From a virus, in IMG/VR virus record IMGVR_UViG_3300025270_000006: a stretch of 38,070 bases of DNA; one strand, given 5' to 3'. The position numbers were made by a program, and so were the translations under genes. Every line of letters starts with the position of its first letter. Positions within the stretch are counted from its first letter, which is position 1. Of the stretch, positions 3,438 to 33,442 are shown in pieces. The notes beneath the pieces are model-generated. The model made no database searches and had not been told where the DNA came from. It saw only the letters and a program-made list of their open reading frames with translations.

Positions 3438-3438
3438 G

Positions 3439-9415: not shown

Positions 9416-10276
9416 TTATGCAGTTGCTGGTGTACCTGCATCGAGTGTCAACGCAACACCTTTGCTGTCATCGAGCTCGAATACACCGTAGTCAGCCGTG
9501 ATCACTACCTCGGTAGCTCTCATGGATATGTCCCTCTCCTGCTCTTTGTTCATGTCAATAGACTTGAGCACAGCTAGAGCAGACCTGTCGGCGCACACGC
9601 CAACAGCATCGTCACTACCGTCAATGGTTATGTTCCCATCTTCAAATATAGGAACTCCGTTTATAGGTCGTAGCCCACTGAAGAAGTTACCTAACAAATC
9701 AGCAGACCAACCTACTGGCACTGGGTATGTAGTAGAAGCTGTGACCGCTGTATTAGCAATGTCCCATACAGCAAATGGATGCTGAACGATATATACGTTA
9801 GGACCAAACTTATTACCCTTGGCATATGCCACGGTTGCGGATACATTAGCCAGGCTCATGCTACGCCCGGCTGCACCTATGTCAGTGCTAAAGCCGGAGT
9901 ACAGAGCTGTTACGTCTGTGTCCTTCTTCCTAGCCATACCATCACCAAGCTGACGTCCGATCATGCTAAACACATTCTCTGTACTCTGGCGCACCAGTTT
10001 GTCAGTCAGGATGATTTTTGCCCCTACCTCATTAGCTGTGAGGTCAACAGTGGTCATGCCAATGTCTTCCTCGTCTATGATGTCTTGCCCGTCTACTAAG
10101 TCGGACATGGACATCTGGCCTACCTTGGGAACAGTTACCTGTTTGGCTCCTTTCGGTAGAGTGAATTGCTCTATCAAGTTCATAGCTGGTGCGTTATGCT
10201 CCTCAGTATAACGAGCAGCGGCTATGATGATATTCTGAGCCTTTTCGAGATTGCCTGTCGTTGCTGTCTGTGCCAT
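9416..10276 (-). CDS. Major capsid protein, HK97-fold type (286 aa)
   Basis: It has a very strong SD (AAGGAGGG) and follows a coiled-coil scaffold gene. The sequence layout is typical of small HK97-like coat proteins (N-arm, then KVGQMSMSDLVDGQDI...VDLTANEVGAKIILTDKL...GRQLGDGMARKKDTD). Confidence 0.8.
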   Translation of the reverse strand: MAQTATTGNLEKAQNIIIAAARYTEEHNAPAMNLIEQFTLPKGAKQVTVPKVGQMSMSDLVDGQDIIDEEDIGMTTVDLTANEVGAKIILTDKLVRQSTENVFSMIGRQLGDGMARKKDTDVTALYSGFSTDIGAAGRSMSLANVSATVAYAKGNKFGPNVYIVQHPFAVWDIANTAVTASTTYPVPVGWSADLLGNFFSGLRPINGVPIFEDGNITIDGSDDAVGVCADRSALAVLKSIDMNKEQERDISMRATEVVITADYGVFELDDSKGVALTLDAGTPATA

Positions 10277-10295: not shown

Positions 10296-11045
10296 TTAAC
10301 TTCCCATGCCCGCAGCTCGACGTGCTGCTGCTATATGGGCTTCGGTTTTGTATCCCCCAATATATTCCCTCAACAGTCGCTCCTGGTTGCTTGTTGCTTC
10401 CGCCGCGCCCTGACTATTGTCGAAAGTCTGCGGTGCAACCTGCCCCTGTTTTAGCCGAGATATCTCGGCTGCTTGTTGACGGAGCTGCGCGATCCGCTTT
10501 GCCTCGCGCTCCATGTCTTGTGGGTTCGTAAATCCAGTTAATGACTTATAGTCCTCTAGCATTTGTTTATTGGCTAGTCCGTACTTATCAAGCATATGAA
10601 GGGTGGCTGCCTGCCTGCCTTCTATGTTGCGTATTAAGTCAAGGTCTTTGCTCTGTTGATCACGTAGTTGCTTCTGGCCTGCTACATGTTGCCTGGCTAT
10701 TTGTCTGGCACTCTGTGGATCTGTGCCCTGTTCCTGTGCCCTGCGCTCAATAGCCTGGGCCTGGCGATATACTTGCTGTTCCCATTCTTTCTGGGCGTTG
10801 ACCTGCCGCATAGTATGCAGCTCCTCAAGTTCAGCGCGCATATCCGGTGCGGGCGACGTGGGCGGCGCAGATGGATCAGGCTGTTGCTGTATCGGAGGCT
10901 GTATAGCCTCTACGGGTACAGGGGGCGCACCCTCTGTACCAACCACCGGCTCATCGCTTGGCGGGCTATCATCTCCCGGCTCAACGGGTGGAGCCTCCGG
11001 TGTTTCCGGTTCTATAGGTTCTTCTGCGTCTACTGACATTACCAT
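10296..11045 (-). CDS. Scaffolding protein (249 aa from the ATG at 11045)
   Basis: The N-terminus is acidic and proline-rich, followed by long Q/R/E-rich predicted coiled coils. It lies directly upstream of the capsid gene. A GAGAGGAG SD sits 7 nt before the ATG at 11045; the ORF track starts at a TTG at 11051. Confidence 0.7.
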   Translation of the reverse strand: MVMSVDAEEPIEPETPEAPPVEPGDDSPPSDEPVVGTEGAPPVPVEAIQPPIQQQPDPSAPPTSPAPDMRAELEELHTMRQVNAQKEWEQQVYRQAQAIERRAQEQGTDPQSARQIARQHVAGQKQLRDQQSKDLDLIRNIEGRQAATLHMLDKYGLANKQMLEDYKSLTGFTNPQDMEREAKRIAQLRQQAAEISRLKQGQVAPQTFDNSQGAAEATSNQERLLREYIGGYKTEAHIAAARRAAGMGS

Positions 11046-11088: not shown

Positions 11089-14000
11089 TCAAGGCTGATG
11101 ATATTTATATAGCGTCTCTTGTGTGACATCTTCAGATAGTATGTCTCCGAAAAATGACAGAATGGTGGACGTATCCATCGGGTTTCTTTCTATCTGTTGT
11201 AAAACCCCTTGCGTTGTTTGGCCTAACCTAGTTAAAGGGTCAGAGTCCCAACCTGTAGTTACCTGGAGCATAGCATCTACCTTCGGGTTTGCAGCCTGGA
11301 ACTCTATCTTCGCCTCGCGTGCGTTCTTAAGCAAGACTCTGAATAAGTCATTCTTGTGTTCTGTTTTCTTTCTGTCTTTCGAGCTTTGATGTTTCCATTG
11401 GTTATATAGCTCCATTGTTTCTTGGGCGCGTCTGGGATATTGCCTGTTTAGCCTCTCGACAAGATAATTCTTTTCTACTTCATAGTAACCAGACTGTGCA
11501 ATACGCTCAGATATTTCCAGCATAGCACTGGCAACGGGAGGGGCTTCTCGTTTGGCTGACTGTTGTACCCTTAATAGATAGGACGCAATGTCAGAATCCG
11601 CTAGAGTCTTAAACCTCTTCTTCATATCGACCGCCCACTCCTCGAGCTTGCGGTCTCGCTTATCCCAGTCCGGTTCACCCGTGGCTGGGATAATGATGTT
11701 ATCTTCTCCATATAGCTTGTCATAGTAAGACGCCTGGGCAAAGTCATATACATCAACATCAGCGTTAGATAATATACCCAAAGAAGATTCCCGTCCAAAA
11801 GTAAACAGCTCGTCTACACCCCTAAAAGCTCCCTGTGGCCCGGTAAGGGCACGTCTTTTATCTGAAGCCTCTTTACGTATCTCTCGTACATCTGCGTAAT
11901 ATGTTGTTATGTTTTGCATTCCATTAGCTATAAATGCGTCTTCAGCTACCTGTAAAAAATTCTGCTCCTCTACTAAAAGGCGGTCTCGTTCAGCTTTGTA
12001 TCTAGTGTACTCGCTAGCACTATTCCGAACCCTCTCGTCAATCTTAGCCTTTGCCTTCTCCCAATCCTCTGGAGATAGAATATCTGCAAAGCGACCTTCT
12101 TCTGTCATTCTTTTAATGTTCTTGCGATAATCGCCGGCAACCTCAGAGAAGCTTGGCGTCTGGTTGCCCGACAACAATCTCCTGATGCTGAGACTAACAT
12201 CAAAGCCACGCCCATCATTCCATCCACCCTTACCAATGTCCCTTAGATACTCTGCCAGTTCGCCTTCAGTCATACTGAAAGCTTCCTGTAAATCTACATT
12301 GGTCGGGCCTAGTTCCAGAACCGATGCATACACCTCATCCAATGTTTCATTAAGGGATTCATAGCTACTCTTTATGCCAAACAATTGGCCGAGTCCCTGG
12401 CCTGCTGCTGTCGCAATGTCTGCTCCACCACCCAATACATCGCCTTGTCTTATCTGTTGCACCCCTCCATATGTCCTCTGTATTAAGGATTCCTTACCCG
12501 GATCTGCACGGAACAGTTCGTCCCAGGCAAAGGGAATCAGGTGTTCCGCCAAAGTCCCTATTGTTTGTCCGCTCATTAGGCTATCAAAATTACTTACATG
12601 TACTATCTCGCCATCGACTAACTGCTTGCCGACAATAGGACGTGTAGTCTGGCCAATAGCATCCGTGCCCGTAGCAAGATCCATAGCTAGACTTGCAGCA
12701 GGTCCGCTAACTAATCCCCGGAAAGCCTTGAAGCTCTCGTCTATTCCGCCCCCCTCTCCTATGCCATTTGCCACAGCAAAGAATGGCGTTGATGCTATTC
12801 GGAACATTGTATCCCAGGGGCCGAATAAACTAATATCTAAATCCCCTACATGGATACGCATAAAGTTTGGGTTGAAGTGCCACTTACCGGTTGCCTCGTC
12901 TCGTAGCCAGGGACTGATATCTGTTTCTTCTCCCATCGCTTCATTGATAGCAAAGGTAAGGAATGTTGCCGTGCCCATCATTTTACTCATGTATTGTTTG
13001 GCAATGCGTTCCTGTAATGTAGCCCTATCTCCTTTAGCGGCTCCCTTAATAGCATGGCCTGCGAAACTCATTCTGGCGGCAAAGAAGCGTGGTGCAAATA
13101 AGAGGAACTGGCCTATACTGCCACCATACCCACGCTTACCCACACCGGTCATTACGTTTACTATAGAAGATATCTGTGCTGCATCCCCACTATCTATGAG
13201 TTGCTTGGTAGTCATCCCTGTATCCACCATTCGTAATTGCATTTCAGCATCAAAGAGCTGATATCGTAGTACGTTGCCGTAGTGCGTAAATGCTCTGTCA
13301 AAGTTTTTCAAACCAGGAAATTGAGCCATGCGCCTATTAAGGAACATATCCGGGGCATTGCCTAGTATGGCCAACCCAGAACTGGCAGCTTCTAGTGGTG
13401 TTGCCCTACCTGTTTGTTTAGCCAACACATCTTGTAGCTGGAAGAACTCTCCAACAACCTCGGGTCCTGCATGAACAAAAGCTTCCCAGGAATCACGAAT
13501 GGCAGTGATGCCATCACCCCGTCGGTCAGCTACAAGTAAATGCTGACCCCTGCCTGTACCTTTGCGCAACGGGTCTTCTACGACACGACGTAGTGCATCG
13601 TTCATAACCGTAGACCACCCTTGAATACCCATAGCACTCATGTCCCCAGTTGCACCATAGGTTCTCATCAGATTGTTAAGAGCCATATACGCTTTGGCAA
13701 AACCTGATGGATCTGTAGTACGCTTTATAAACTCTTGGCTCTCTATGATGGCGTCTCTAAATAATACCGGGAAATAATGTCCCTCAAGTCCAATGCCGGA
13801 TAACTGGCCCATACGGCCCGTGACCTCTTTTTTCATCTGTTCCATATCACGGGTAGCCTTCTTGAATAATTTTGTAAGTCTCTCTTTCTCGGCCTTGTTC
13901 CAGCCCTTGTTGGTCATCAGGCTATCTATTTCTTTTCTCCACTTAACAAGGCTTGCCTCGAGGCGATCCGTTTCCGCCCGTGCTATCACAGATATATCAA

Positions 14001-17000
14001 TGTCTCCCAAATCGCTAGTGACATTAGGGGTGATTTTACCGGCTGCTTCCATCTCGGCAATAATAACCTCAGCTCTCGATAGGAGACGTGCCTGCCTGCC
14101 ACGGCCCGTCCATTCTCTTCTGGCAACATTCTTTAATAGCCGTTTGATCTCGACCAAGTTAATGTTGTATTTTTTATAAACCTTTTCGCCAACAAGCTGT
14201 GCGACTGTGCCATATCTACCCTTCATGTTTTCATTGGCAATCCGATTAACATACTGGCCCAGCTTTCTGTTCTGCACTATGTTGCCTGCGTATTCCACAA
14301 ACTCACCGTTAGATACAGCAGGACTGGCATACACATGACGAAAGAACATGCCTAGAGCCTGCGAGGGCATCTCTCGTTCTTTCACGGATTTCACTCCCCA
14401 TCTCTTTGGTATATCACCCTGGTCTGATAATTCTAATTCACTCAACCCCCGTGACAACACACCATCATCTTGTACCGATTCTCCCATGACATTACTGGGC
14501 TGATATCCGGCACCTTCATTGTATAAAACGTGGCGAGCTTTGCCAGCTCCGCCAACTCCCTCTTGGATTAATTGCGCCTCATACCTTTTGGGTATCGCGG
14601 CAAGTTCAGACATAATGTCATACGCTGACACCTTGTCTCCTTCTTTGAATCCAAACAACGAACCCCCACGTTTATTAACTCTCCCTATTAGATCCTTGTC
14701 TAGCGTAACAACGGCAGACTTTAATGCAGCTACATATAAAGGTAGTCGCTCCACTACATCACGATATCCCGGCTGTAGAGTCAGGCTTATGTCTTCCCCC
14801 CTCATATTTTTTTTCACATCGCCAGGAGCAATATTCTTATACCTCTGGCCTGCGGGAGTACTGAGGTCAACTATAGAGTTACCCAATACAGTTTGATCTA
14901 TATTGTTGTCTATAAAATATTCATCTGTAAAAGCAAAGTTAATCTGATTGCCCTGTTTCTCTGATAACAATAAGTTCTCTAAGAGTTCCCCCTGGGCGGT
15001 AACAATATTATTGTCCGCATCAAAAGATTGTGCTATGCGCCTTTCAATCGGACCACCCATGTTGGACTTTAATAGTTTAGGAAACAATGCCTGTATTGTG
15101 GCAATCCCAATCCCCGTCTTTTCCCTAACAACGGTCGCATGTCCTTCAACCCGGTTAGCCGTACCGTCAGACCAACTTTTAATCTTGTCAGCAGCTTCCC
15201 TTCCAATCCCCCGTTCATATAATTCTTCTGCGGTCTCAGGTTTTGTCCTTCGTTGAAAAAGATCCGGTATTATTGTGGATTTGCGTCGCAACATGTTGTT
15301 GGCCGTAGCCATTAGATTATTTGTTGCATTAACCGCTGTTTTATCTGCTATGGCCGACTTTACATTTTGATATGTCTGTAGCATTTTGCTACCAAACCCG
15401 GTCCTTGGTGACACCATCTCAATATCCGGTACACCAAAGGTGTTGTCATTGGCAGACGCTTGCTGTGCGGCAAAATCGTTTGCTGCGTTTGGCCTGATGT
15501 CCGGGGTATCAACTAGGCGTTTGGCTTGATGAATATCCACGATAGGCTGTATAAAGTCCCTGGTCACCGCCCCATGTATGCCATTACCAAGTACTGTCTT
15601 GGCAAGTTGATTGCCTGTGTAATCCTTCCCATATTTACCTGGGGGCGGTATAACGAAATCATCAGGAAGGCCCATGTACCTTTTCCACATATCAGGGGTT
15701 GCCCTTATCACTTTCGTCGCTTCATCATCAATCCCTGTTGGCCCTGGCAGAATAATACGTGGCACTTGCCCCTTGGACGCTACAAGTGTTCCCCCTGCCT
15801 GTGGCCCAGCGTACTCCCTAGTATGAAGGTTTCTCCCGGAGTTTCTCGCGTTGGCCTCTTCAAAGACACCTGATCCCCCTGTGGTTAAAATAGGCCGGTT
15901 AGAATCTAGCTTTCCTTCTGCAATCATAGTACGTATTCGGTCTACCTCCCAATGGGTCTCACGGGTGATAGGCCTAAACGCCTGGGCGAGTGACATTGCA
16001 TTACCAGCATCCTCTTCTGCTTTAATTAAATCCTCCAGGTTGTCATACCAGTCTGTCGGACCTGTTTTCTCAGGAAGAGCTGGAAGCTCACCAACATCAT
16101 TGCGAACAGCCCTAAGAAGCATTCTAGGTCTGTGCTGCGACCCACCGTAGTCAGCAGCATTTACTAGTTGTACATCCCATTTATACCCAATAGAATCTGC
16201 ATCTATTGCATCTGTGATTTGCTTAAACAGCAACGTGTTTTGATACTGCGGAACATTTTCTATGGTAATAGTCTTGGGGCTGGTCATGCGTATGTTTCTT
16301 GCCACGGATGTTGCGATGGCATAATCATTCTCGTCAACTATCCGGTTGGGATTTATTAATGAAAATTTCTTACAAACTGGAGAGGCGTGGTAATGCTCGG
16401 CATTAGAAGCGATCAGTGACTGCAAGGAAGCATCATCAGCAATGCTCCTCGCGGTGAAGTTCGTTCCATGTGCGATATTGAACGCCTGGATAATCTCTGG
16501 ATCATATTCATCAACGTGTACATTAACGTAAGAACCTGGTTTTAGGCCTCCAGCAAGTGTGCCAGTACCAGCCATAGACTCCGCTAGGCGTACTACCGTG
16601 GTAACTGGTGCGGTAACTGTGCCTTCCACTTCTTGTCGAGGCAAAACCCAAGTCGGATTGTCGAGCTGTTCTTCAAACATTTCATCGTAGAAGACATAAT
16701 CAAAAGGTACGCCTTCAATATGTCCGCTGTTCACGGCATCATCAACTGCTTGCTTTGCAGTTGCGTTAACCTGATCCATGGGCAGGCCCTCTTCCTGTGC
16801 CTTCCTGCGGAACTTATTAACCATAGTTTCAAGTCCCCTAAATGTTAGCCTGGTACCGGCAATGCCACCTCGGACGCCAGTAAAGGCTGCTTTAAAAGGT
16901 GCTGTTATTATGCGCCCTGCAAGATCATCAATACGTTTAGGAATTAATAATGCTTGTCTGGTTGCTTCTGTGGTAGCCCTTACCGTATTACGTGCAGCTT

Positions 17001-17685
17001 GTTGAGCCAGGGTATCAGCTCCCATCTGAGCTGCTTTCCTAGCACCTAGCCTTGCAACAGTCTTTGCGGCAAATGCCGTGCCCCCGGTTAATACCGTCTC
17101 TCCAATACCGGCTGCCACTTCCGTTGGCAGTTCAACAAGCATCCTGTTAGAAAACTCTACCGGCCCAACCTTATGGCGTTCTGTTAGCCAGGGCATTGCT
17201 ACATCCTGGACTTGCGCCATGATATCGTATTCTTCTGTCATCGTGGGATTACGGCCTTCACGATCACGAAAGGCCTGTTTGTCTGCCTCGACTTGTGCCC
17301 CAAGCTCTACATTACGAGAAGGATCTAGCCTCTCCCCCCAGCTCTCTGGCATTCCACCAGGCTTTAATCCAAACCCAGACGAAACATCCGCCCCGATATC
17401 TAAAATATCGCTTCCATACTCTCTTGCTCCATGCCATAACATACCGCCTATTCCGCCCTGCTCGTAGGCCTCTTTCAATTCTCCGATTCTCTGAATCTCC
17501 TCAACCGCAGCACGGCGAGGATATTCCATAGCAGCCTGTGCCGGCTTGCTCTGGAGAATAGGCGCAAGATATTTGCCCGCCAAATTCATTCCCGTCTGGG
17601 GAATAGGCCGGGCTTGTCGTTCTTCCCTCTGCCGCCGTTGTTCTGCCATCTGGCGTAGTTTTTCTCTTTGTTCTTCGCTAGGCAT
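11089..17685 (-). CDS. Giant virion-module protein (2198 aa), polyvalent/internal-virion-type, with an embedded C5 DNA methyltransferase domain
   Basis: This is a single uninterrupted ORF between the portal-proximal genes and the scaffold gene. Its ATG overlaps the upstream stop as TAATG. Residues about 365-715 carry the full C5-MTase motif set (see the domain feature). I recognised no motif in the remainder. Confidence 0.85.
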   Translation of the reverse strand: MPSEEQREKLRQMAEQRRQREERQARPIPQTGMNLAGKYLAPILQSKPAQAAMEYPRRAAVEEIQRIGELKEAYEQGGIGGMLWHGAREYGSDILDIGADVSSGFGLKPGGMPESWGERLDPSRNVELGAQVEADKQAFRDREGRNPTMTEEYDIMAQVQDVAMPWLTERHKVGPVEFSNRMLVELPTEVAAGIGETVLTGGTAFAAKTVARLGARKAAQMGADTLAQQAARNTVRATTEATRQALLIPKRIDDLAGRIITAPFKAAFTGVRGGIAGTRLTFRGLETMVNKFRRKAQEEGLPMDQVNATAKQAVDDAVNSGHIEGVPFDYVFYDEMFEEQLDNPTWVLPRQEVEGTVTAPVTTVVRLAESMAGTGTLAGGLKPGSYVNVHVDEYDPEIIQAFNIAHGTNFTARSIADDASLQSLIASNAEHYHASPVCKKFSLINPNRIVDENDYAIATSVARNIRMTSPKTITIENVPQYQNTLLFKQITDAIDADSIGYKWDVQLVNAADYGGSQHRPRMLLRAVRNDVGELPALPEKTGPTDWYDNLEDLIKAEEDAGNAMSLAQAFRPITRETHWEVDRIRTMIAEGKLDSNRPILTTGGSGVFEEANARNSGRNLHTREYAGPQAGGTLVASKGQVPRIILPGPTGIDDEATKVIRATPDMWKRYMGLPDDFVIPPPGKYGKDYTGNQLAKTVLGNGIHGAVTRDFIQPIVDIHQAKRLVDTPDIRPNAANDFAAQQASANDNTFGVPDIEMVSPRTGFGSKMLQTYQNVKSAIADKTAVNATNNLMATANNMLRRKSTIIPDLFQRRTKPETAEELYERGIGREAADKIKSWSDGTANRVEGHATVVREKTGIGIATIQALFPKLLKSNMGGPIERRIAQSFDADNNIVTAQGELLENLLLSEKQGNQINFAFTDEYFIDNNIDQTVLGNSIVDLSTPAGQRYKNIAPGDVKKNMRGEDISLTLQPGYRDVVERLPLYVAALKSAVVTLDKDLIGRVNKRGGSLFGFKEGDKVSAYDIMSELAAIPKRYEAQLIQEGVGGAGKARHVLYNEGAGYQPSNVMGESVQDDGVLSRGLSELELSDQGDIPKRWGVKSVKEREMPSQALGMFFRHVYASPAVSNGEFVEYAGNIVQNRKLGQYVNRIANENMKGRYGTVAQLVGEKVYKKYNINLVEIKRLLKNVARREWTGRGRQARLLSRAEVIIAEMEAAGKITPNVTSDLGDIDISVIARAETDRLEASLVKWRKEIDSLMTNKGWNKAEKERLTKLFKKATRDMEQMKKEVTGRMGQLSGIGLEGHYFPVLFRDAIIESQEFIKRTTDPSGFAKAYMALNNLMRTYGATGDMSAMGIQGWSTVMNDALRRVVEDPLRKGTGRGQHLLVADRRGDGITAIRDSWEAFVHAGPEVVGEFFQLQDVLAKQTGRATPLEAASSGLAILGNAPDMFLNRRMAQFPGLKNFDRAFTHYGNVLRYQLFDAEMQLRMVDTGMTTKQLIDSGDAAQISSIVNVMTGVGKRGYGGSIGQFLLFAPRFFAARMSFAGHAIKGAAKGDRATLQERIAKQYMSKMMGTATFLTFAINEAMGEETDISPWLRDEATGKWHFNPNFMRIHVGDLDISLFGPWDTMFRIASTPFFAVANGIGEGGGIDESFKAFRGLVSGPAASLAMDLATGTDAIGQTTRPIVGKQLVDGEIVHVSNFDSLMSGQTIGTLAEHLIPFAWDELFRADPGKESLIQRTYGGVQQIRQGDVLGGGADIATAAGQGLGQLFGIKSSYESLNETLDEVYASVLELGPTNVDLQEAFSMTEGELAEYLRDIGKGGWNDGRGFDVSLSIRRLLSGNQTPSFSEVAGDYRKNIKRMTEEGRFADILSPEDWEKAKAKIDERVRNSASEYTRYKAERDRLLVEEQNFLQVAEDAFIANGMQNITTYYADVREIRKEASDKRRALTGPQGAFRGVDELFTFGRESSLGILSNADVDVYDFAQASYYDKLYGEDNIIIPATGEPDWDKRDRKLEEWAVDMKKRFKTLADSDIASYLLRVQQSAKREAPPVASAMLEISERIAQSGYYEVEKNYLVERLNRQYPRRAQETMELYNQWKHQSSKDRKKTEHKNDLFRVLLKNAREAKIEFQAANPKVDAMLQVTTGWDSDPLTRLGQTTQGVLQQIERNPMDTSTILSFFGDILSEDVTQETLYKYHQP
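15541..16593 (-). other. C5 cytosine-DNA-methyltransferase domain inside the giant protein (about aa 365-715)
   Basis: The motifs are in canonical order and in one frame: I (MAGTGTLAGG), II (VDEYDPEIIQAFNIAHG), IV (SPVCKKFS; cca gtt tgt aag aaa ttt checked at 16361-16380), VI (TIENVPQY), VIII (GGSQHRPRMLL), IX (IRATPDMWKRYMGLPDDF) and X (VLGNGIHGAV). Confidence 0.8.
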
Positions 17686-18050
17686 TAATAAAAGATGAAC
17701 CTCGTTCTTGGATTAGTAAACTGCTGTGTGACTCCCCTCTCGAATTGCGGTAGCTGACCATATCTCTTAGTCCACGGATCTGTTTCCAGATAGTCCATGA
17801 ATGTAGCAGGGGGTTGACCCTGGCGGAATGATCTGCCAATTTCACCAAGATAATCACCATAAACATCCTGATATGCCCTTTGCATATAGCGACTGCGACG
17901 TGGGCTTTGGCTTCCAAAGGCTTCTCCGGCAGGCGAACTAAAGTATGCCGCCTGTGGAAGCTGGGCTAAAACCATTTGCCCAACCGCCGGCGATAATGAT
18001 CCCCAGCCACCACCCGCTAGGTAGTCTGTAAATGCATCACCATTAGCCAT
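17685..18050 (-). CDS. Hypothetical internal-virion-module protein (121 aa)
   Basis: An AGGAG SD lies upstream and the gene is translationally coupled to the giant gene. No motif was recognised. Confidence 0.6.
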   Translation of the reverse strand: MANGDAFTDYLAGGGWGSLSPAVGQMVLAQLPQAAYFSSPAGEAFGSQSPRRSRYMQRAYQDVYGDYLGEIGRSFRQGQPPATFMDYLETDPWTKRYGQLPQFERGVTQQFTNPRTRFIFY

Positions 18051-18059: not shown

Positions 18060-18779
18060 CTATCCATAAAGTTGAGACAGTGCAGTGCTTGCATCAGTTC
18101 CGCCACCTGTCTGTGTCAGGAAGTAATTCAAGAAATTACCCATTGGGTTCTGGCCCACATATGCATCATATAATTCATTCAAGACACCCCCCATAGCCTG
18201 TCCAACAACACCCCCATAAAGGCCACCGCCCGGTCGTTGTAATGCCAAGAGATTCGCTAGGCCAAGCCTGTTTTCCCTTGCGCCCTGCCCGCTTGCATAT
18301 AGTTCCCTAAACAGGGTAGCTTCTTCCGGGCTAATGGTTCTTGGTACCGCGGGCCCTGGAGATACACCAGCACCAGGCACGGGCTCACCAATGCCTGTTA
18401 GATACTCTAGAAAGCCACCAGGCCCTGTGCCCTCCGGCATTTGACTGATGCGACCAATCTCCCCCGCTAAAGAGCGTAAGTCTGTTGGAGTCGCGCCAGT
18501 ATATCCACCCATAAAATCAGCAAAGCTACCACCAAACCCGGTCTGTGTACCGAATCTTGGTGTGCCTCCACCAAAGCCACCCAGATAATATTGCTGTAGT
18601 AGAGGTGACTGCAAGCCATACAGTGCGTTACGCATCACAGACCCTGGCGCAGTCCTGCGTGTAGCAAATTGTCTAAACCGTTCTGCCGGAGTAAACGCTG
18701 TTTCCCCTAGCCAGTCTGTATCTATCCCCCCTATACCTGCAAATAAATCTTCCATCGATGCATCGTTGCCATTGGGCAT
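18060..18779 (-). CDS. Glycine-rich hypothetical virion-module protein (239 aa)
   Basis: An AGGAGG SD lies upstream. The sequence has G-rich low-complexity stretches (GGFGGGTPRFGTQTGFGGSF). Confidence 0.6.
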   Translation of the reverse strand: MPNGNDASMEDLFAGIGGIDTDWLGETAFTPAERFRQFATRRTAPGSVMRNALYGLQSPLLQQYYLGGFGGGTPRFGTQTGFGGSFADFMGGYTGATPTDLRSLAGEIGRISQMPEGTGPGGFLEYLTGIGEPVPGAGVSPGPAVPRTISPEEATLFRELYASGQGARENRLGLANLLALQRPGGGLYGGVVGQAMGGVLNELYDAYVGQNPMGNFLNYFLTQTGGGTDASTALSQLYG

Positions 18780-18789
18780 GTTGAACCTC

Positions 18790-20793
18790 CTAATATGGTC
18801 TTTCCTTCATAAAGGTAACTAAAAATTCCTCTCGTGTTTTACCTGCTGCTTCCCAGTTTTTAAGGTTGTCTGCCATCTGCTCCCGCATTCTTTGCTTTAA
18901 CCAGGGCTCTGCATCAGGCGGTAAGTTATAGTCTGCCACCAGTCTCGCTGTTCTTCTAGCCGAACCAGAGCTATCGGGATCCATAAACAGCATTCTTTGA
19001 TACTGAGTATTCGCATCCATTTCTTCACCCAAGATATCCTCATACGTTACGCCCATAAACTGGGACATGTTGTCTCGTAAGTTTTCTGCCGCATCAAAGA
19101 ACATCCCTCGTCTATTCCTTGGATTATCCATAAACTGATTAGCCCAGTTTGTAAAGTGGTCGTGTTCTTGTGTCAGGTCTTCATCTATATATTGTGGTAG
19201 TTTAACTCCTTCTACTATCTGGTAATTAACACCTTTTGCTGGGTTGTCTCCTGGCCGACCCTCTGTATCCCAGGGTTCGGTTAAGTAATACAGCATTTCC
19301 GCTTCTGCATATAATTCCGGAAGCTTCTGTCGATAATCATATCGGCCTGATCCTTCTCTCTGATTAAACGCATTCAAGAACCTAGTGTAATAATCAGGGT
19401 ATCCTGGACCGTAGGCCTCTTCTTTTGGCTTTGCCCAAATTTTGTCCCACATTGGGTCTAATCCTTCTTCCATTAACGCCTCTTCTTCTGTGGGCGTGAA
19501 TCTTCCTTTAGGCATAGTCCCGCTTGCTTGCATAAGATCACGGTCTACTGCCCTTAATCGGTCATATGGAGTGCTATCTAGTGGGTGACCCAGCATTTGT
19601 TCTTGCGGACTGAGTTCGTCTGGTTCCAACCCTTCTTCCATTAACGCCTCTGCATCCCAATCGCCAGCCGAACCCGGCATAAAGTATGGTTTGTATTTAT
19701 CCTGATCCGCGTCACCTAAATAAATATTGGACGGTATGTCTTGTTTCCATGACTCTACTGGCAAGGAAGTTGCCAGGCGGGGTGTGGGCTGCATAGTTGC
19801 AGTAACATCTTTGGATTCCTGATCCATAGAAAACTGTACAGCATCCACGGCATTTTGCCACGTCTGCATACTATTCCATTTATTGGGGTCAGCTGCACCA
19901 CCGCTTATTTTGTTGCGATAATCCTCGAGCCACTCGTTCACCATGCCCATGTCTAGCTCTCCGGTCTGATAGTTACGCTCGTCTCCTATATATGCCTTCA
20001 GCGCGGCTGGGCCTTCATCTTTCAGAATATCATCTAAGACCCGGAAGTATTCTCGAGTCATTGCCTTGTCTTCTAGTTCCATAAACTTATTATTGGTTTG
20101 CTCGCTTACTCCCTGGCCTAACGTATGCTCCCAGGCTGCTTTGTTCCCCAGTTGGTTTAACTGCCAATTATCCCCGGCAGTGGTAATGCTATCTGTTATG
20201 GCGTCACCGATACCTTCTCCGATTGCCATTGTCCCCTCGCCTTGTGCCACCACACCCTCACCCAGTGGAGAGAACACGTTTTCCCCAAGCCAGTCACCAA
20301 CGCCACTGAATATGTTTTTAATATCTGCTAGGAGGCCCCGGTCTTCAGCCTCGTCTTCAATCCTGTCAACAGCTCCGGTAAATGCCGGATGGTTAGAAAT
20401 AGCATTTGCTTCATCAAAGAGGCCTTCGTCGTTGGTATTGAAGCCCACCTCGACAGCAGGAAATTCCTCAAGGAGACTGGCAATGTCTGGGACATCAAGC
20501 CCTGGACCCCAGGGTGTTAACATCCCTGTTACTCCAGCAAGAGCTGCCGGGTCGGCAGATCCTGCCATTTCAATCTGATATGCGGCTTTCTCGACGGCAA
20601 ACTCATCATCTTCATAAGCGGACGCCATATCATAATCTTCCATATGGCCCAGCATAGTATTGCCGAAATCTTCCATTGATTCCTCAAATGTCTTATCACC
20701 GTAGTACATATCCCAGAAAACATTCGCTGGGCCTCCCGTCCATATACTCGCAGCCAACTCAGGAATTCTATTTAAATGACTACGCTGCTCCAT
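18790..20793 (-). CDS. Acidic hypothetical protein (667 aa), a candidate internal/ejection or head-morphogenesis protein
   Basis: An AAGGAGGG SD lies upstream and the gene immediately follows the portal gene. It contains an internal duplicated ALMEEGL(E/D)P module, seen as an exact 21-nt repeat at 19463-19483 and 19631-19651. Confidence 0.6.
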   Translation of the reverse strand: MEQRSHLNRIPELAASIWTGGPANVFWDMYYGDKTFEESMEDFGNTMLGHMEDYDMASAYEDDEFAVEKAAYQIEMAGSADPAALAGVTGMLTPWGPGLDVPDIASLLEEFPAVEVGFNTNDEGLFDEANAISNHPAFTGAVDRIEDEAEDRGLLADIKNIFSGVGDWLGENVFSPLGEGVVAQGEGTMAIGEGIGDAITDSITTAGDNWQLNQLGNKAAWEHTLGQGVSEQTNNKFMELEDKAMTREYFRVLDDILKDEGPAALKAYIGDERNYQTGELDMGMVNEWLEDYRNKISGGAADPNKWNSMQTWQNAVDAVQFSMDQESKDVTATMQPTPRLATSLPVESWKQDIPSNIYLGDADQDKYKPYFMPGSAGDWDAEALMEEGLEPDELSPQEQMLGHPLDSTPYDRLRAVDRDLMQASGTMPKGRFTPTEEEALMEEGLDPMWDKIWAKPKEEAYGPGYPDYYTRFLNAFNQREGSGRYDYRQKLPELYAEAEMLYYLTEPWDTEGRPGDNPAKGVNYQIVEGVKLPQYIDEDLTQEHDHFTNWANQFMDNPRNRRGMFFDAAENLRDNMSQFMGVTYEDILGEEMDANTQYQRMLFMDPDSSGSARRTARLVADYNLPPDAEPWLKQRMREQMADNLKNWEAAGKTREEFLVTFMKERPY

Positions 20794-22641
20794 TTATGGC
20801 CCTCCTTGTGCGCCAGGTCTCGGAGTGCCCGGCGGTACTAGTGGTCCTGCTTGTGGCGTAGGAGCTGGAGGGGGTACGCCCATCATGGCATTAGGCATTA
20901 CTTCTGGTCGGGTAGTCGGTGGTCCCCCGGGAGGTCCGGTCGGGGAAGGGGGTCCGCCCGGTCCGGGGGGTCCCCCCGGTCCTGGGGGTCCACCGGCCTG
21001 CATTGCCATTTGTTGCTGCATCATCTGTGCAGCCTGTCGCTTCTGCATGATCACGTTCATCAATTCTCCTGTATAAAAACTGACGAGATCCTCACGCCCT
21101 TGACGCTCGGATGCTCGGAGTAGCGTCCACAATGCTGCTTCCGGCAACATTCTTTCCGCCATTTGTTCCTTAATAGAGTCATCCATCTGGTCGGCGTCTT
21201 GTATAGCCAAGATTCTATCTCTGATTGCACGATCTGACAAGAGAGGCGTTGGGCCTTCCCTGGCAATCTGTGCCATTGAGTACCTGGTCATATCGTCCTG
21301 TGGCAATTGTCCGACCAGATTCACGACCGGAACGCCGGTAGCTTTCAGCATATCAGGTTCAATTGTCTCTGTGAAATACATTCTATGCCGATCCATTCCT
21401 GATAACTCTAGCGACTGGAACGATCCGGTTACATATTGATCTGATACTAAATTGAATATCATTTCGTAGGCTTTCTCTACGCCTCTCAGGTATTTACTTA
21501 CTACTGTTTCCACTCCCTGTCGGAGTGTATTAATAGCAAACCCTGAGAGCTGGAAGGGGACATCCCCATATACTGAGTAGGGGATAGCACCTCTTTGCAT
21601 TTCCCCGGATACGAGCTGCATAAACGCACCTGTTTCCTTGGCCACTTCCAGAAGTCCCAGGGGTTCCACGTTCTCGTTTTGTGAAAGCGCAATCTCAGAA
21701 CCCTCCAGGTATGGATCTTCATCTAAAGTTTTTGTTCCATCTCTGGATCTTACAATAAGCCCCTGCCTCCTGGATCTTGCTGTCATCTCCAGCATTGTAC
21801 TCATCATCATGTTATGTTTTTCGTACAAATCCCTAGTGGACGTGTACACTGCTTCGCCTACATCAGCGATAGTATTGTCCATATTCGTATGGGTCATAGC
21901 GATTATGTATGGATTAGATCCTATCGGTCCCAAAAATACAGGAACCTGGTTGGCTCCGTGCTTGGTTTGTTTCTTCACAACCCTGATTAAAGGCTGATTC
22001 TCAGAGCCTGCGTGGATAATAATCGTGTTCATTTCCTTATCATAGAAGTCATAGACATCTATGCCCTCGGCTGTATACTGGCTATCCCAATCGACGCGTA
22101 CATTATATTGCGCCAGTATCTGATCTCTGGTCTTAGGAACCTTGTAACACGCCCACTCTAATCCGTCTGATCCGACGCCCCAGTAAGTATGCATCGGGTC
22201 CCAGGGTGTGATATCCACGTATGTTGTGCCATCGTCCCGTTTTGCCAGCAAGGCTCTGCCGGAGTACCATCCACGGAGTGAAGAATACCATGCAAGTTGA
22301 TCTCGTACCGTGGGCAGCATCATACGGCAGAGCCTCTCATCCGCTGCTTTAATAATACCAATAAGGAATCTTTCCTTTAAATCATTGCGGTCGCGTAGTT
22401 CCGGGTCGGCCTGGTCGTGCGGAATACGCACAGTCATCTCAGCTCCTGCTATCCACCCGATTACTTTCTGTGCGTAATTGTGTGGTTCATTAGAAGTATA
22501 TGACTGATAGCCTTCCCCTGCGTCATAGGGGTCCAGCCTGTACAGAGAATGGTCATCCTGCATTCTCTGTCTGAGCGGTTCGGTCGCATTATAGTGGGCA
22601 TCCACTAACTTAACGATATCTTCTGGTTTTCTACGTGCCAT
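20794..22641 (-). CDS. Portal protein (615 aa) with a Pro/Gly-rich C-terminal tail
   Basis: It lies directly downstream of TerL (TAAATG junction) and has a size and N-terminal layout typical of podovirus-type portals. The C-terminus reads GGPPGPGGPPGPGGPPSPTGPPGGPP. Confidence 0.75.
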   Translation of the reverse strand: MARRKPEDIVKLVDAHYNATEPLRQRMQDDHSLYRLDPYDAGEGYQSYTSNEPHNYAQKVIGWIAGAEMTVRIPHDQADPELRDRNDLKERFLIGIIKAADERLCRMMLPTVRDQLAWYSSLRGWYSGRALLAKRDDGTTYVDITPWDPMHTYWGVGSDGLEWACYKVPKTRDQILAQYNVRVDWDSQYTAEGIDVYDFYDKEMNTIIIHAGSENQPLIRVVKKQTKHGANQVPVFLGPIGSNPYIIAMTHTNMDNTIADVGEAVYTSTRDLYEKHNMMMSTMLEMTARSRRQGLIVRSRDGTKTLDEDPYLEGSEIALSQNENVEPLGLLEVAKETGAFMQLVSGEMQRGAIPYSVYGDVPFQLSGFAINTLRQGVETVVSKYLRGVEKAYEMIFNLVSDQYVTGSFQSLELSGMDRHRMYFTETIEPDMLKATGVPVVNLVGQLPQDDMTRYSMAQIAREGPTPLLSDRAIRDRILAIQDADQMDDSIKEQMAERMLPEAALWTLLRASERQGREDLVSFYTGELMNVIMQKRQAAQMMQQQMAMQAGGPPGPGGPPGPGGPPSPTGPPGGPPTTRPEVMPNAMMGVPPPAPTPQAGPLVPPGTPRPGAQGGP

Positions 22642-24000
22642 TTATACCCACCTTTTTACGCGAATACTGTCACGGTTGTGTACATATCCGTAGCCAAACT
22701 TATCAATCAGTCCATAGATAAGGGCTTTGACGCCGTGATTGTTCTTATCTTCAGGTACTTCCCCCACTATATTACCTTCTCTATCTGTTTTCCACCTATA
22801 TGCTTTCGTTTGTCCGTCGAAAGGATTAGGCGATGCACCGAATTCTGACAGTAATCCCTGGCACTTTGCGTCTATTACTATCTTTGGTGCGTGTGTAGAG
22901 GGGTCAATTTTAAGCCAGCTCTTCAATCTTTCAGATCCTTCATTGATTTTTATCTTCTGACTAGCCATAAAGAGCCCTGCTTTATCCAGCCACAGCTCTG
23001 CGGGAGCTGCCATTGCCTGGTGCTGGGTACCGGCTATATCAATGACGCCGTACTTTACATCCCGCCACCACGGCCTGGCAGTAACAATATCTATAATATC
23101 CTCGGTTATTAAACCCTGTTCATATATTTCATCGATAACCCGTATCTGTTCCCCAACGAATTGTATCACCTCGACTGCATATGCTCCGGCGTACCCCGGG
23201 TCCATCCATATATGAACAGGGACATGGGGATCATACTCCACGTTGCCGACATGTGCATCAGGCCGGAACTCAGGGAAGACCAGACCCCTTGGAGGACTGG
23301 GCTTTCCTGCTATACGTTCCATAAAAAAGTCATCGCTGGCTAAATTCTTCAGCCTGATAATCTCTGGATCGTTCTCTCCGCCCGGATATAAATACTTATT
23401 AGTCCAGCTCGGTAGGGAATAGGCCCTGGCCTGCTTATCAGCTCCCGATGCCCACGCTGTAAACATCTGTGGATACCATCCGAGAGATCCCTCAAATGTA
23501 CCTGAGAGGAACAGCCATCCCTTTTTAGGGGCACATCTGCCCATAAGCCTGTGGAATGTATCTAAATCCAGTTGAGATGCCTCGCACCCAAGTATTCCGT
23601 TGGGGGCTCTCATTGCCAGTGTCCTGTGGTCTTTAGCGGATTTAGTCTCTATCCTCGTGCCGTCCACCAATTCCAGGAACCCGGGATCTACACGGAGAGA
23701 ATATTTCTTTAACATCTTCAATATCCCAAAATTATCCTTGAGATATTCAAATTCAGCCCTTGTTCTTTCGTAGTCCGCAGCTACCAGCCAATATAACGCA
23801 GGACCATGTTCTTCATTATGTAAGAAATACTGGTGCAGGAGATACTTGGAAGCAATCATGCTCTTACCAGCCTGCTCTCCCCCGGCCACGAGGTTAAACC
23901 GATACGGAGAATCTATAATAACCTTCTGCTCCTTGGTAGGAACAAAGCCCACTATATCAAATACCTGGTCTCTAACCGGCTTCCTAACGGCAGTAGTCAT
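22642..24000 (-). CDS. terL: Terminase large subunit (452 aa)
   Basis: A Walker A-like motif (AGGEQAGKS) lies near the N-terminus. The C-terminus has RNaseH-like nuclease acidic motifs (IWMDPGYAG..., DKNNHGVKALIYGL). The gene sits between the terS-like and portal genes. Confidence 0.9.
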   Translation of the reverse strand: MTTAVRKPVRDQVFDIVGFVPTKEQKVIIDSPYRFNLVAGGEQAGKSMIASKYLLHQYFLHNEEHGPALYWLVAADYERTRAEFEYLKDNFGILKMLKKYSLRVDPGFLELVDGTRIETKSAKDHRTLAMRAPNGILGCEASQLDLDTFHRLMGRCAPKKGWLFLSGTFEGSLGWYPQMFTAWASGADKQARAYSLPSWTNKYLYPGGENDPEIIRLKNLASDDFFMERIAGKPSPPRGLVFPEFRPDAHVGNVEYDPHVPVHIWMDPGYAGAYAVEVIQFVGEQIRVIDEIYEQGLITEDIIDIVTARPWWRDVKYGVIDIAGTQHQAMAAPAELWLDKAGLFMASQKIKINEGSERLKSWLKIDPSTHAPKIVIDAKCQGLLSEFGASPNPFDGQTKAYRWKTDREGNIVGEVPEDKNNHGVKALIYGLIDKFGYGYVHNRDSIRVKRWV

Positions 24001-29002: not shown

Positions 29003-29003
29003 A

Positions 29004-31756: not shown

Positions 31757-32243
31757 GTTTTACTATGGGGATAAGGTGCAGTTCGTACCTCGAACCGCAA
31801 AATACAATAGGCACTGGAAACACCAGGGGTACATAACAGGAACCTCTATTCATATTAAAGACAACAATCGCTATGCCACCTACCAGGTGGAATGCTTTTG
31901 TGGTCAACGCCTGGTTCCAAAAGCTATAGAGCTAGTCCTCGTACAAGCACGAGGGATTGAAGAAGACCAGGAGCCTACGATGGATAAGAGAAGGCGTCAC
32001 TTTCTGGAACAGCTATCACTTGATCTAGATGGTACGCCAATGCAACTGGCACAGCAGGTTACCCTGGTGTTGCGTGTACTCCCGGATAAATACAAGGGCG
32101 TTGTGATGGATCGCTTTGGATTGAACCCGGACCATGAGTTTCGGTTAACACATGCAGAGATTGGTGAAGGATTAAATGTCACCAAGCAACGAGCCCAACA
32201 GATAGAACGCCGGGCATTCGAGATGATGAGGGGGCGTACATGA
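31737..32243 (+). CDS. Sigma-70 region-4-like transcription factor (168 aa from the ATG at 31737)
   Basis: The C-terminus LPDKYKGVVMDRFGL....LTHAEIGEGLNVTKQRAQQIERRAFEMMR matches the sigma-70 region 4 / LuxR-type HTH layout. A GAGGGGAG SD lies upstream of 31737. Confidence 0.6.
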   Translation: MGNNSRKFYYGDKVQFVPRTAKYNRHWKHQGYITGTSIHIKDNNRYATYQVECFCGQRLVPKAIELVLVQARGIEEDQEPTMDKRRRHFLEQLSLDLDGTPMQLAQQVTLVLRVLPDKYKGVVMDRFGLNPDHEFRLTHAEIGEGLNVTKQRAQQIERRAFEMMRGRT

Positions 32244-33442
32244 TTACTGAACTCAGTTTGTTTACCGGATATTCAGGCATTAGCCTGGGCGTGAAACTCG
32301 CTAATATTAACACAAGGACAATAGCTTATGTCGAATGGGAGAAGTATGCACAAGAAATTATCAAAGCAAGAATCAAAGACAAACTCTTATCGGACGCACC
32401 CATCTTCTCCGATATATCTTCCTTTAGGGGTGAACAGTTTAGAGGAATGGTTGACCTCGTTACAGCAGGATTCCCCTGCCAGCCGCACTCGTTTGCTGGA
32501 GCCAGGCGATCTTCTGAGGATTCCAGAAACAAATGGCCTGATACGCTCAGAGTTATTCGTGAAGTGGCTCCCAGATATATCCTCCTGGAAAATGTCTCAG
32601 GTCTCCTTTCTAGCTCAGTTGATGAACGAACCCCAGCATACGGGGGAGTTGTGGTTGGACAACTTACCGAAATCGGGTATGACTGCTTCTGGGAAGTTGT
32701 GGGAGCTGACGATGCCGAAGCACCACATAGAAGAAAACGATGGTTCTGCTTTGGGGTCTTGGCCGACTCCAAGGGTATCGGACACAGAGGGGGGCTTGGT
32801 TCAGAACGTGGAGATGGAGAACGGATCGTTCAGCAGGAAGAACAAGGACGGAGTGAGGTGGGGAGTGAAGCTGCGAGACGCAACAGAGACTTGGCCGACT
32901 CCACAAGCGAGAGACTACAAGGACACAATGAACAGCCGACCCAATCAACAGGAACATTTAATGGATACAATCAGGGAGAACTGGATGACTCCCAACACGA
33001 TGGATGTGCTAGATCCCAAGAGCCAAGAGGCACTGGATCACGAGCACACCCACAGACAGGGGAGATCCAACCCCAACAATCTACGGGATCAGGTGTCGGT
33101 GCAACAGGGTCAAACGAACTGGCCGACTCCAATGGCATCAGATATGAACTGGAGAAGACCAACAGAGACTTGGCAGGGCGAGAGCGATCTTCCCTCAGTA
33201 ACATATACGTGGGCTACCCAAGAGGCATCCCATCCTGGCCCCCAGGACCAAGCCAATCAGACGAGTGGGGAAGAATCCTTACAGAGCGACCAGACCTTGC
33301 CCCAGCACTTACAAAGAAGGCTGAATCCCAGTTTCGTGGAATGGTTGATGGGCGTACCCATAGGGTGGACGAGCTTAAAGCCCTTGGAAACGGAGTCGTA
33401 CCTGCGGTGGTGGCACTGTTTCTCAGGAGATTACTAGGATGA
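32240..33442 (+). CDS. C5 cytosine DNA methyltransferase, frame A (400 aa)
   Basis: Frame A carries motif I (LFTGYSG, 32258), IV (GFPCQPHS, 32468), VI (LLENVSG, 32588), VIII (PHRRKRWF, 32726) and X (LGNGVVP, 33383-33403). The stretch between VIII and X is G/S/R/E/Q-rich low complexity, followed by WPPGP...W..IL.ERPDLAPAL. A GAGGGGG SD lies upstream, and the stop overlaps the next gene as ATGA. Confidence 0.8.
   Translation: MITELSLFTGYSGISLGVKLANINTRTIAYVEWEKYAQEIIKARIKDKLLSDAPIFSDISSFRGEQFRGMVDLVTAGFPCQPHSFAGARRSSEDSRNKWPDTLRVIREVAPRYILLENVSGLLSSSVDERTPAYGGVVVGQLTEIGYDCFWEVVGADDAEAPHRRKRWFCFGVLADSKGIGHRGGLGSERGDGERIVQQEEQGRSEVGSEAARRNRDLADSTSERLQGHNEQPTQSTGTFNGYNQGELDDSQHDGCARSQEPRGTGSRAHPQTGEIQPQQSTGSGVGATGSNELADSNGIRYELEKTNRDLAGRERSSLSNIYVGYPRGIPSWPPGPSQSDEWGRILTERPDLAPALTKKAESQFRGMVDGRTHRVDELKALGNGVVPAVVALFLRRLLG
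32328..33437 (+). CDS. Nested +1-frame ORF B (369 codons) inside the C5-MTase gene, carrying TRD-like and motif-IX-like sequence
   Basis: Frame B has stops at 32241, 32292 and 32322, then an ATG at 32328 with AAGGA 9 nt upstream, then no stop until 33435. It encodes WPTPRVSD, WPTPQARDYKD, WMTPNTMD, WPTPMASD and RRLNPSFVEWLMGVPIGWT. Whether it is translated, alone or by frameshifting, is unknown. Confidence 0.4.
   Translation: MSNGRSMHKKLSKQESKTNSYRTHPSSPIYLPLGVNSLEEWLTSLQQDSPASRTRLLEPGDLLRIPETNGLIRSELFVKWLPDISSWKMSQVSFLAQLMNEPQHTGELWLDNLPKSGMTASGKLWELTMPKHHIEENDGSALGSWPTPRVSDTEGGLVQNVEMENGSFSRKNKDGVRWGVKLRDATETWPTPQARDYKDTMNSRPNQQEHLMDTIRENWMTPNTMDVLDPKSQEALDHEHTHRQGRSNPNNLRDQVSVQQGQTNWPTPMASDMNWRRPTETWQGESDLPSVTYTWATQEASHPGPQDQANQTSGEESLQSDQTLPQHLQRRLNPSFVEWLMGVPIGWTSLKPLETESYLRWWHCFSGDY

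Follow-up and report, generated by a model that had tools for sequence, protein, structure and literature searches.

The DNA methyltransferases (MTases) of polyvalent proteins are N6-adenine enzymes of the EcoKI/TaqI-like type fused to SF2 helicases, with no C5-cytosine MTase described in that account of the class (PMC5512222), and P1 DarB, a component of the phage head, provides cis protection to the DNA that is injected (PMC5512222). Podovirus ejection proteins typically diverge rapidly, are helical and exchange hydrolase domains (PMC8954989). Here we analyze a giant protein that has features of both, encoded by an uncultured marine phage in IMG/VR virus record IMGVR_UViG_3300025270_000006 (38,070 nucleotides; this whole stretch is referred to as the window). 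Its gene, identified from the list of open reading frames (ORFs) and their translations, lies within the head-gene cluster (11089..17685, minus strand, ATG start, 2198 aa) and encodes a backbone (carrier) with an inserted C5-MTase. Judged from the comparisons below, METHYLTRANSFERASE is an inserted cargo domain of the giant protein (aa 353-735), and the backbone represents a large unannotated family whose giant members are mostly alpha-helical, evolve fast and are essentially free of cysteine. With a probability of roughly 0.55, we read the giant protein as a carrier-plus-cargo protein of the virion interior that is probably ejected, with the MTase as its cargo.

Like polyvalent proteins, the giant protein is encoded together with packaging and virion genes, has interchangeable effector domains and is predicted to be delivered with the DNA. 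Polyvalent proteins, however, have several (2-15) effector domains or LPD/MuF modules, whereas the giant protein has PF00145 only; it is without Pfam LPD, MuF or other polyvalent-associated domains and consists mostly of unannotated backbone with a single cargo. DarB is close to it in size (2255 vs 2198 aa) and likewise contains a DNA MTase domain, but combines an N6-adenine MTase with an SF2 helicase and LPD36, whereas the giant protein has a C5-type enzyme without a helicase. The darB gene of the myovirus P1 adjoins ulx and lxc outside the head module, whereas the gene described here lies inside it, and DarB has 9 cysteines (0.40%) vs a single one in the giant protein. The analogy with DarB drawn in the initial annotation of this DNA is thus retained as a functional likeness and given up for sequence, enzyme type and gene position.

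With the podovirus ejection proteins (T7 gp14, gp15 and gp16; P22 gp7, gp20 and gp16), the giant protein has in common that it is large, helical, rapidly diverging and, except for one residue, cysteine-free. Its family is also mosaic and swaps peptidoglycan hydrolase domains as the ejection proteins do, and in both cases several such genes stand in a row. Comparison of related phages shows hypervariability in the giant backbone and in the 667- and 239-aa proteins encoded upstream of it, with 57-76% identity in the major capsid protein (MCP), the large terminase subunit (TerL) and the portal-position protein. Podovirus ejection genes follow the tail genes, whereas the gene of the giant protein is located between the portal-position and scaffold-position genes.

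The embedded methyltransferase and its slot

The initial annotation had described a single 6.6-kb ORF containing a canonical C5-MTase with motifs I, II, IV, VI, VIII, IX and X at about aa 365-715. The ORF was confirmed at its full length of 2198 codons, and so was the MTase domain. PF00145 matched aa 368-695 (E=3.9e-22; 79.5 bits vs a curated cutoff of 22), and the only PHROGs matched by the giant protein were DNA methyltransferase families 116 and 363. AlphaFold2 (AF2), run with a 19-sequence alignment, modelled aa ~361-728 at a predicted local distance difference test score (pLDDT) of 85-96, and Foldseek search with the MTase model returned M.HhaI, M.HaeIII, Dnmt2 and further C5-MTases (E ~2e-11; probability 1.0; template modelling (TM) score 0.65-0.68). 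Both AF2 and Foldseek indicated the MTase fold with its two lobes and, between motifs VIII and IX, a target-recognition domain. Motifs I (MAGTGT), II (VDEYD), VI (ENV), VIII (QHRPR), IX and X (GNG) are present, and in the alignment to M.HhaI the catalytic cysteine, the ENV glutamate and the QxRxR arginines are all in register. Because profile, M.HhaI alignment, AF2 and Foldseek agree, the coordinates and the motif list of the initial annotation are correct; the description as canonical does not extend to motif IV, which reads Val-Cys rather than Pro-Cys ('ASPVCKKF', nt 16363-16386).

We delimited the cargo, a C5-cytosine DNA MTase of what is called here the 'SPVC' subfamily, to aa 353-735 (15481..16629, minus strand) based on Pfam, AF2, Foldseek and the homologs described below. 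The codon of the motif IV catalytic nucleophile, Cys438, is located at 16372..16374 (minus strand); this residue aligns to M.HhaI Cys81 and is the sole cysteine of the protein. From sequence and model, the embedded MTase looks active, being real, complete, folded and catalytically equipped, and its activity is predicted on these grounds. It has the fold and the catalytic motifs of the orphan phage C5-MTases (M.HhaI-like); its free-standing SPVC relatives, at 370-630 aa, are proteins of their own with genes beside the terminase, whereas the enzyme of the giant protein is embedded at residue 353.

To our knowledge, the proline of the motif IV Pro-Cys dipeptide is nearly universal in C5-MTases. 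The sequence 'HASPVCKNFS' or a near variant of it was present in all embedded and free-standing subfamily members compared, and this occurrence of Val-Cys throughout indicates a subfamily signature under selection rather than decay. On this comparison, SPVC is the signature of a phage-specific MTase subfamily. Identity among the embedded MTases is 50-80%, and with the 15 free-standing relatives (232-628 aa) it does not exceed 44%; the closest of these, P0161 and P0165, reach 40-44% and have the same SPVC motif. In the free-standing P0165, P0166 and P0168-P0171, motif I reads FSG(S/G)RT and not FxGxG, with the second glycine of the S-adenosylmethionine (SAM) loop changed to arginine, and cofactor binding may be altered in this part of the subfamily. 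Three free-standing SPVC MTases (contigs L087, 10001-11461; L086, 10001-11317; L088, 1732-3192) are encoded directly upstream of TerL, in the usual small-terminase position; they have 100-210-aa N-terminal extensions without a Pfam match, and most have a single (catalytic) cysteine.

The motif changes bear on whether the domain transfers a methyl group at all. It might instead install another group, as CmoX does, or serve mainly as a DNA-binding or covalent-trapping anchor to DNA, and three observations are consistent with this: the motif IV proline is valine in the whole subfamily, motif I is altered (FSG(S/G)RT) in some free-standing relatives, and Foldseek also matched CmoX (8yf3, E=4.9e-10), which depends on carboxy-S-adenosylmethionine (Cx-SAM). 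CmoX, a DNA cytosine C5-carboxymethyltransferase, has an SPPC motif and an arginine at the position of the motif X asparagine, and a phage-encoded CmoA is found nearby (PMC12783734). The window enzyme, in contrast, has SPVC, intact motif I glycines and the motif X asparagine ('LGNGIHG'). No CmoA homolog was found among the window proteins scanned, which covered part of the small ORFs. CmoX-type carboxymethyl transfer is disfavored because the window enzyme keeps the motif X asparagine and reads SPVC rather than SPPC, and we regard the wider proposal, group transfer of another kind or anchoring, as highly improbable.

Searches among 5.8 billion sequences returned four whole-protein homologs. 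P0002 is 75% identical to the giant protein over its full length. P0003 (1957 aa) shares aa 1-352 (46% identity) and everything from aa ~736 onward (30-41%), and has five residues in place of the 383 MTase residues (aa 353-735). P0004 (2143 aa) shares the MTase (50% identity), with a backbone that is dissimilar except for the last ~100 residues; hhalign comparison of the backbone alignment and of a 218-sequence family hidden Markov model (HMM) with P0004 gave no match beyond the MTase and these C-terminal ~100 aa. P0004 is encoded on a Tara Oceans metagenome contig that corresponds to the window gene for gene (76% identity for the MCP, 64% for TerL, 57% for the portal-position protein and 61% for the two large tail proteins). 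This synteny, together with the shared MTase, places the same cargo in two different backbones at one genomic slot.

In a third lineage, L017, the MTase is located at the same point of a backbone that is collinear with aa 235-2195 of the giant protein at 38% identity. The lineages that lie between the window and L017 in the backbone tree, and that have complete 5' ends, have either no MTase or 200-300 other residues there, giving a patchy distribution of the MTase on the tree. Between the window and L017, the MTase is the best-conserved segment (62% identity vs 29-49% for backbone segments). Taken by alignment, the slot after the ~350-residue N-terminal domain is variable, and the MTase of the window is a clean 383-aa insert.

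The backbone family, its cysteines and its cargos

The initial annotation had suspected hidden effector domains in the other ~1800 residues of the giant protein. This expectation gained no support: no second domain besides the MTase was detected by Pfam, PHROGs, PDB profile search or Foldseek against PDB and BFVD, and these residues form a conserved family backbone. HMMER search with aa 1291-2198 returned 581 representative clusters (representatives at 50% identity) at E<=1e-3, 408 of them at E<=1e-10; a word-index search with a 27-member alignment returned only 7 proteins. The family members listed are mostly 1200-2600 aa long and have a ~290-residue core in common, which corresponds to window aa ~1395-1690. 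The giant protein belongs to this family by its core, its near-absence of cysteine and the position of its gene, and the family as a whole matched no Pfam family and no PHROG.

The family genes are hosted by a clade of uncultured, largely marine tailed phages. IMG/VR contains 132 loci of the family, and in the dozens of retrieved contigs with enough flank the family gene lies between the portal-position gene, which is followed by 1-3 small genes, and the scaffold and MCP genes. A tblastn search of the giant protein against 50,697 deposited phage genomes returned only distant MTase matches, the family itself being absent, and the typical family member P0026 matched nothing in the same genomes. 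With the portal-position and capsid proteins as queries, these genomes gave capsid matches of 30-34% to HTVC111P-type pelagiphages and DSL-LC06, which are without a giant gene at that position. A pattern scan of GTDB species-representative genomes with the backbone alignment confirmed no relative. The only taxonomic hint to the host of the backbone family is P0159, from the NCBI metagenome-assembled genome Flavobacteriales bacterium IPI95_15620.

Along the giant protein, the backbone begins with an N-terminal domain (aa 1-352; 16630..17685, minus strand) that is mostly helical, has a charged N-terminus and is conserved in P0002, P0003, P0005, P0006 and P0009-P0012; AF2 confidence is low in this domain apart from aa 120-175. 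The middle region behind the MTase (aa 736-1290; 13816..15480, minus strand) is 30-72% conserved in close backbone relatives, matches no family and has low pLDDT. The conserved family core (aa ~1395-1690; 12616..13503, minus strand) is common to the 581 representative clusters at profile positions ~105-400 and carries the motifs NFDRAFTHYGN, NVMTGVG, FAPRF, NEAxGEETD and NFMRxHxGxxDxSLFGxWD. The C-terminal domain (aa ~1890-2198; 11092..12018, minus strand) was modelled by AF2 as a confident all-helical domain (pLDDT 70-89). Inside it lies a ~100-aa module (nt 11221-11538), the only backbone part in common with P0004, where the HMM match covers residues 2023-2123 (E=2e-6).

Two candidate identities were discarded. 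A match of the C-terminal backbone to the Agglutinin-1 A chain among PDB sequences (E=0.0034, 18.8 bits) was rejected as chance, and a virion RNA polymerase was dropped, with no polymerase motif or profile match found and a sigma-70 region 4 protein encoded by the phage.

The giant protein has one cysteine in 2198 residues, the catalytic Cys438. The sole cysteine of P0002, P0004 and the L017 protein is likewise catalytic, and the MTase-less P0003 has none. The other window proteins contain 0.51% cysteine, at which ~11 would be expected in the giant protein (P=1.7e-4 for at most 1). Across 153 family proteins there are 21 cysteines in 214,306 residues, with none in 140 of the 153; the single cysteine of P0058 is located in 'GFDCSGF' of an NlpC/P60 domain and is catalytic. 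The retention of a lone catalytic cysteine in a backbone purged of cysteines, together with conservation of the MTase above that of the backbone, argues that catalysis is under selection.

The signature extends to neighboring genes. The 667-, 239- and 121-aa proteins encoded upstream of the giant protein and the scaffold-position protein lack cysteine both in the window and in all related contigs examined (L001-L085), and TerL, the portal-position protein and the 112-, 421- and 647-aa proteins always contain cysteine in the window and the related contigs examined. T7 gp15 and gp16 have no cysteine in 2065 residues and gp14 has one, with 0.5-1.0% in the T7 portal, capsid, tail and terminase proteins and 2.2% in gp13. 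P22 gp7, gp20 and gp16 have none in 1309 residues; other P22 virion proteins have 0.2-2.6%, except for the cysteine-free scaffold and needle. Given these cysteine-free ejection proteins of T7 and P22, the signature of the giant protein matches that of podovirus ejection proteins. Unfolded passage through an oxidizing periplasm, as described for ejection proteins, fits a cysteine-free chain (PMC8954989). The cysteine-free pattern of the window block from the post-portal genes to the scaffold recurs in the scaffolds and ejection proteins of T7 and P22.

Pfam scanning of 60 family members without the MTase gave no match for most. Among the remainder were an SLT lytic transglycosylase in one member (E=5.4e-17), NlpC/P60 in P0058 (E=1.5e-19), ART-PolyVal in one member (E=3.5e-10) with one further sub-threshold match, and DdrB-ParB in one member (E=3.6e-11); GNAT acetyltransferase, class I methyltransferase (Methyltransf_23) and sigma-70 region 4 domains were also found, each in a single member. 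Two of these, ART-PolyVal and DdrB-ParB, count among the hub domains of the polyvalent proteins (Iyer et al. 2017, PMC5512222). A head-module protein has use for a peptidoglycan hydrolase only when it gets to the cell wall, which is the case for T7 gp16 (PMC8954989).

These cargos also bear on whether the giant protein is structural at all. The portal and scaffold labels are positional and virion membership of the giant protein is itself a prediction, which leaves room for a non-structural late protein that is encoded in the head operon by chance, with an MTase fusion that has no delivery function. Such a protein would not account for a gene location that is strictly conserved in dozens of diverged contigs, with the portal-position gene on one side and the scaffold/MCP genes on the other, for a cysteine-free signature held in common with neighboring internal-protein candidates and known ejection proteins, or for the peptidoglycan hydrolase cargo of family members, and we give this explanation very little credence.

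A structural role of a different kind would make the giant protein a ruler or plug, tape-measure-like or an internal head core or scaffold, which may exit via the tail and to which the enzyme domains are accessory. Its length, helical character and poor modelling and the lack of transmembrane helices would suit such a role. Its best BFVD matches, which are not significant (best E=0.019), are tape-measure and LPD-containing proteins. Tape-measure proteins often carry SLT, NlpC/P60 or M23 domains. The gene, however, lies upstream of the scaffold and capsid genes and outside the tail module, and the fold matches have TM scores <0.1. In addition, a homolog of the 421-aa tail-module protein (L044, 18384-19616; homolog of window 6080-7345) matches the adaptor of the podovirus SU10 below threshold (E=7.2e-5, 23.7 bits vs a cutoff of 27), and this weak match hints at a short-tailed virion, which needs no tape measure. 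On balance a ruler or plug appears improbable.

Site and time of methyltransferase action

The initial annotation had proposed a virion-delivered MTase effector of polyvalent type. Support for it is indirect and comes from the conserved head-module position, the cysteine-free signature and the SLT, NlpC/P60, ART-PolyVal and DdrB-ParB cargos. Under the carrier-plus-cargo reading, the giant protein would be incorporated during procapsid assembly, as would the three small cysteine-free proteins encoded just upstream, would exit the capsid unfolded through the portal and tail channel at infection, and would refold in the new host, with the MTase arriving along with the DNA. Using host SAM, the enzyme would then methylate a specific cytosine motif, most plausibly in the incoming phage genome as protection from restriction, and the early free-standing MTase of the window (32240-33442) would take over after gene expression starts. 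The most economical reading of the analysis is that the enzyme would enter with the genome and forestall restriction, an effect like that of DarB. The analysis itself shows the ORF, the fold and motifs of the MTase, its insertion as a domain, and the family with its synteny, cysteine depletion and range of cargos; packaging, ejection, enzymatic activity, methylation target and benefit are what we infer from the genomic comparisons.

The serious rival places the action of the MTase in the producing cell, on progeny DNA before or during packaging. Virion carriage would then be incidental and ejection and refolding unneeded, and the carrier could sit at or near the packaging vertex or merely be expressed late. 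It is a serious rival because the free-standing relatives adjoin the terminase: the closest of them, P0161 and P0165, are encoded immediately upstream of TerL, in the packaging module. The gene of the giant protein also belongs to a late head operon and is translationally coupled to its upstream gene. Moreover, methylation of progeny DNA before release would mean that a slow enzyme does not have to work at the moment of entry. However, the window already has another C5-MTase for intracellular methylation, and action in the producing cell leaves unexplained both the sharing of the slot with cell-wall hydrolases, ART and ParB effectors and the purge of all cysteines but the catalytic one. We consider this rival unlikely.

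Several observations weigh against the carrier-plus-cargo reading. In the two readable contigs, which are podovirus-like, the free-standing SPVC MTases lie immediately upstream of the large terminase gene, a location that would suit action during packaging in the producing cell equally well. C5-MTases are slow enzymes, and protection by the small number of copies injected may come too late for the genome. Replacement of the motif IV proline by valine may affect the predicted activity. No cultured relative was found by tblastn among the 50,697 phage genomes, so that packaging and ejection are predictions. The giant protein has no sequence similarity to DarB (best BLASTP E=0.57), and the family HMM gave no meaningful score against the T7 and P22 ejection proteins (best, P22 gp20 at 6.6 bits). 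By the crude test of Kyte-Doolittle hydropathy, no transmembrane helix was found (19-residue maximum of 1.33 in the giant protein and <1 in the 667-, 239- and 121-aa proteins); membrane-spanning elements are reported to be conserved in gp14 and gp16 homologs (PMC8954989). The AF2 model of aa 1291-2198 (8 sequences) has a mean pLDDT of 53, with the core, mostly helices and few hairpins, at <50, and Foldseek with this model gave best matches of E=0.64 in PDB and E=0.019 in BFVD (TM <0.1). Finally, a head-module position for the members with SLT or NlpC/P60 is an assumption based on the rest of the family, and the genomic context of P0058 was not recovered from IMG/VR or JGI metagenomes.

A broader proposal extends the carrier-plus-cargo reading to the family. 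The backbone could be a general, programmable vehicle with which a widespread clade of uncultured marine phages delivers proteins, a cysteine-free chain threaded unfolded through the tail and refolding in the host, with a slot that is filled by cell-wall hydrolases, ADP-ribosyltransferases, ParB-type nucleases or acetyltransferases and, in the window, by a C5-MTase that would methylate the entering genome before phage gene expression. We put this forward as a tentative possibility that is more doubtful than carriage of the MTase itself. If true, and judging by the literature searched, this would be the first known delivery of a C5-MTase by the ejection apparatus of a tailed phage; a search for internal virion (ejection) proteins with a cytosine methyltransferase returned nothing relevant. 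Delivery of the enzyme with the DNA would also represent a second, mechanistically different answer to the problem that P1 DarB solves, namely genome protection in the seconds before the phage expresses its own genes, using a C5 enzyme in a different virion protein.

Independent of delivery, the analysis identifies a large family (581 clusters), in neither Pfam nor PHROGs, as a constant component of the head module in an abundant clade of uncultured phages. Near-total absence of cysteine with a catalytic surviving residue could be used to flag ejected proteins in metagenomic phage genomes, and could also separate active from dead cargo domains. A defined cargo slot might be of use in engineering enzyme-delivering phages.

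Neighboring genes and other features of the window

The giant gene was placed by the initial annotation between portal-proximal genes and scaffold/capsid genes. TerL and MCP were confirmed as flanks, and 'portal' and 'scaffold' are labels by position only, the portal-position (615 aa) and scaffold-position (249 aa) proteins having no profile or PDB match. On the minus strand, TerL (22642..24000; PHROG 2, E=9.9e-21) is followed by the putative portal (20794..22641), which is 57% identical to its L002 counterpart; searches of Pfam, PHROGs and PDB for a portal identity, including five diverged homologs, gave nothing. The cysteine-free 667-aa protein (18790..20793, minus strand) is hypervariable between related phages and has no similarity to the 800-aa L002 protein at that position. 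Next are the Gly/Pro-rich 239-aa protein (18060..18779, minus strand) and the 121-aa protein (17685..18050, minus strand), both cysteine-free, the latter a conserved upstream partner in related loci. Both are rich in Gly, Pro and Gln and appear intrinsically disordered, with a hydrophobic helix in neither. Downstream of the giant protein are the putative, cysteine-free scaffolding protein (10296..11045, minus strand) and the MCP (9416..10276, minus strand; Pfam Phage_capsid_4, E=2.1e-7, and PHROG major head protein families).

Overlapping stop and start codons had been proposed for both junctions of the giant gene, and this is true of the upstream one, where the stop of the 121-aa gene overlaps the ATG of the giant gene (TAATG at 17685). 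The downstream junction is instead a 43-nt spacer with a GAGGAG ribosome-binding site, followed by the scaffold ATG at 11045.

In a comparison of L002 (4393-7411) with the window (18060-20793), the 667/800-aa and 239/200-aa proteins and the giant backbone are without detectable similarity, and the capsid is 76% identical. The difference between L002 and the window is a localized hypervariable block within an otherwise conserved structural module.

The second C5-MTase reported at 32240 was verified as a free-standing enzyme with a canonical GFPCQ motif (32240..33442, plus strand; PF00145, E=3.4e-37) in the opposite-strand early/replication module. BLAST detected no similarity between it and the embedded MTase (E=0.53), and the two are therefore not recent paralogs. 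A sigma-70 region 4 protein (31722-32243, plus strand) overlaps the start of this MTase gene. The unrelated phage contig L087 has the same pair in reverse order (1421-3654; MTase, then sigma) as well as a late SPVC MTase, so the combination of an early canonical and a late SPVC MTase recurs.

Most 4- and 6-base palindromes are rarer than expected in the window, including CATG, GGATCC, CAGCTG, GCGC and CGCG. CCGG is the only palindrome that is clearly over-represented in the whole window (159 observed vs 125 expected, z=+3.0), which makes it a weak candidate for the target site of one of the two window MTases.

No DNA polymerase was seen among the window ORFs scanned. The plus-strand early module contains a PD-(D/E)XK nuclease, an AAA_25/KaiC-like ATPase and a VRR-NUC nuclease (28890-29789, 29958-31340 and 33439-33813), and the minus strand carries a gene for a DUF3223 protein at 34493-35176.

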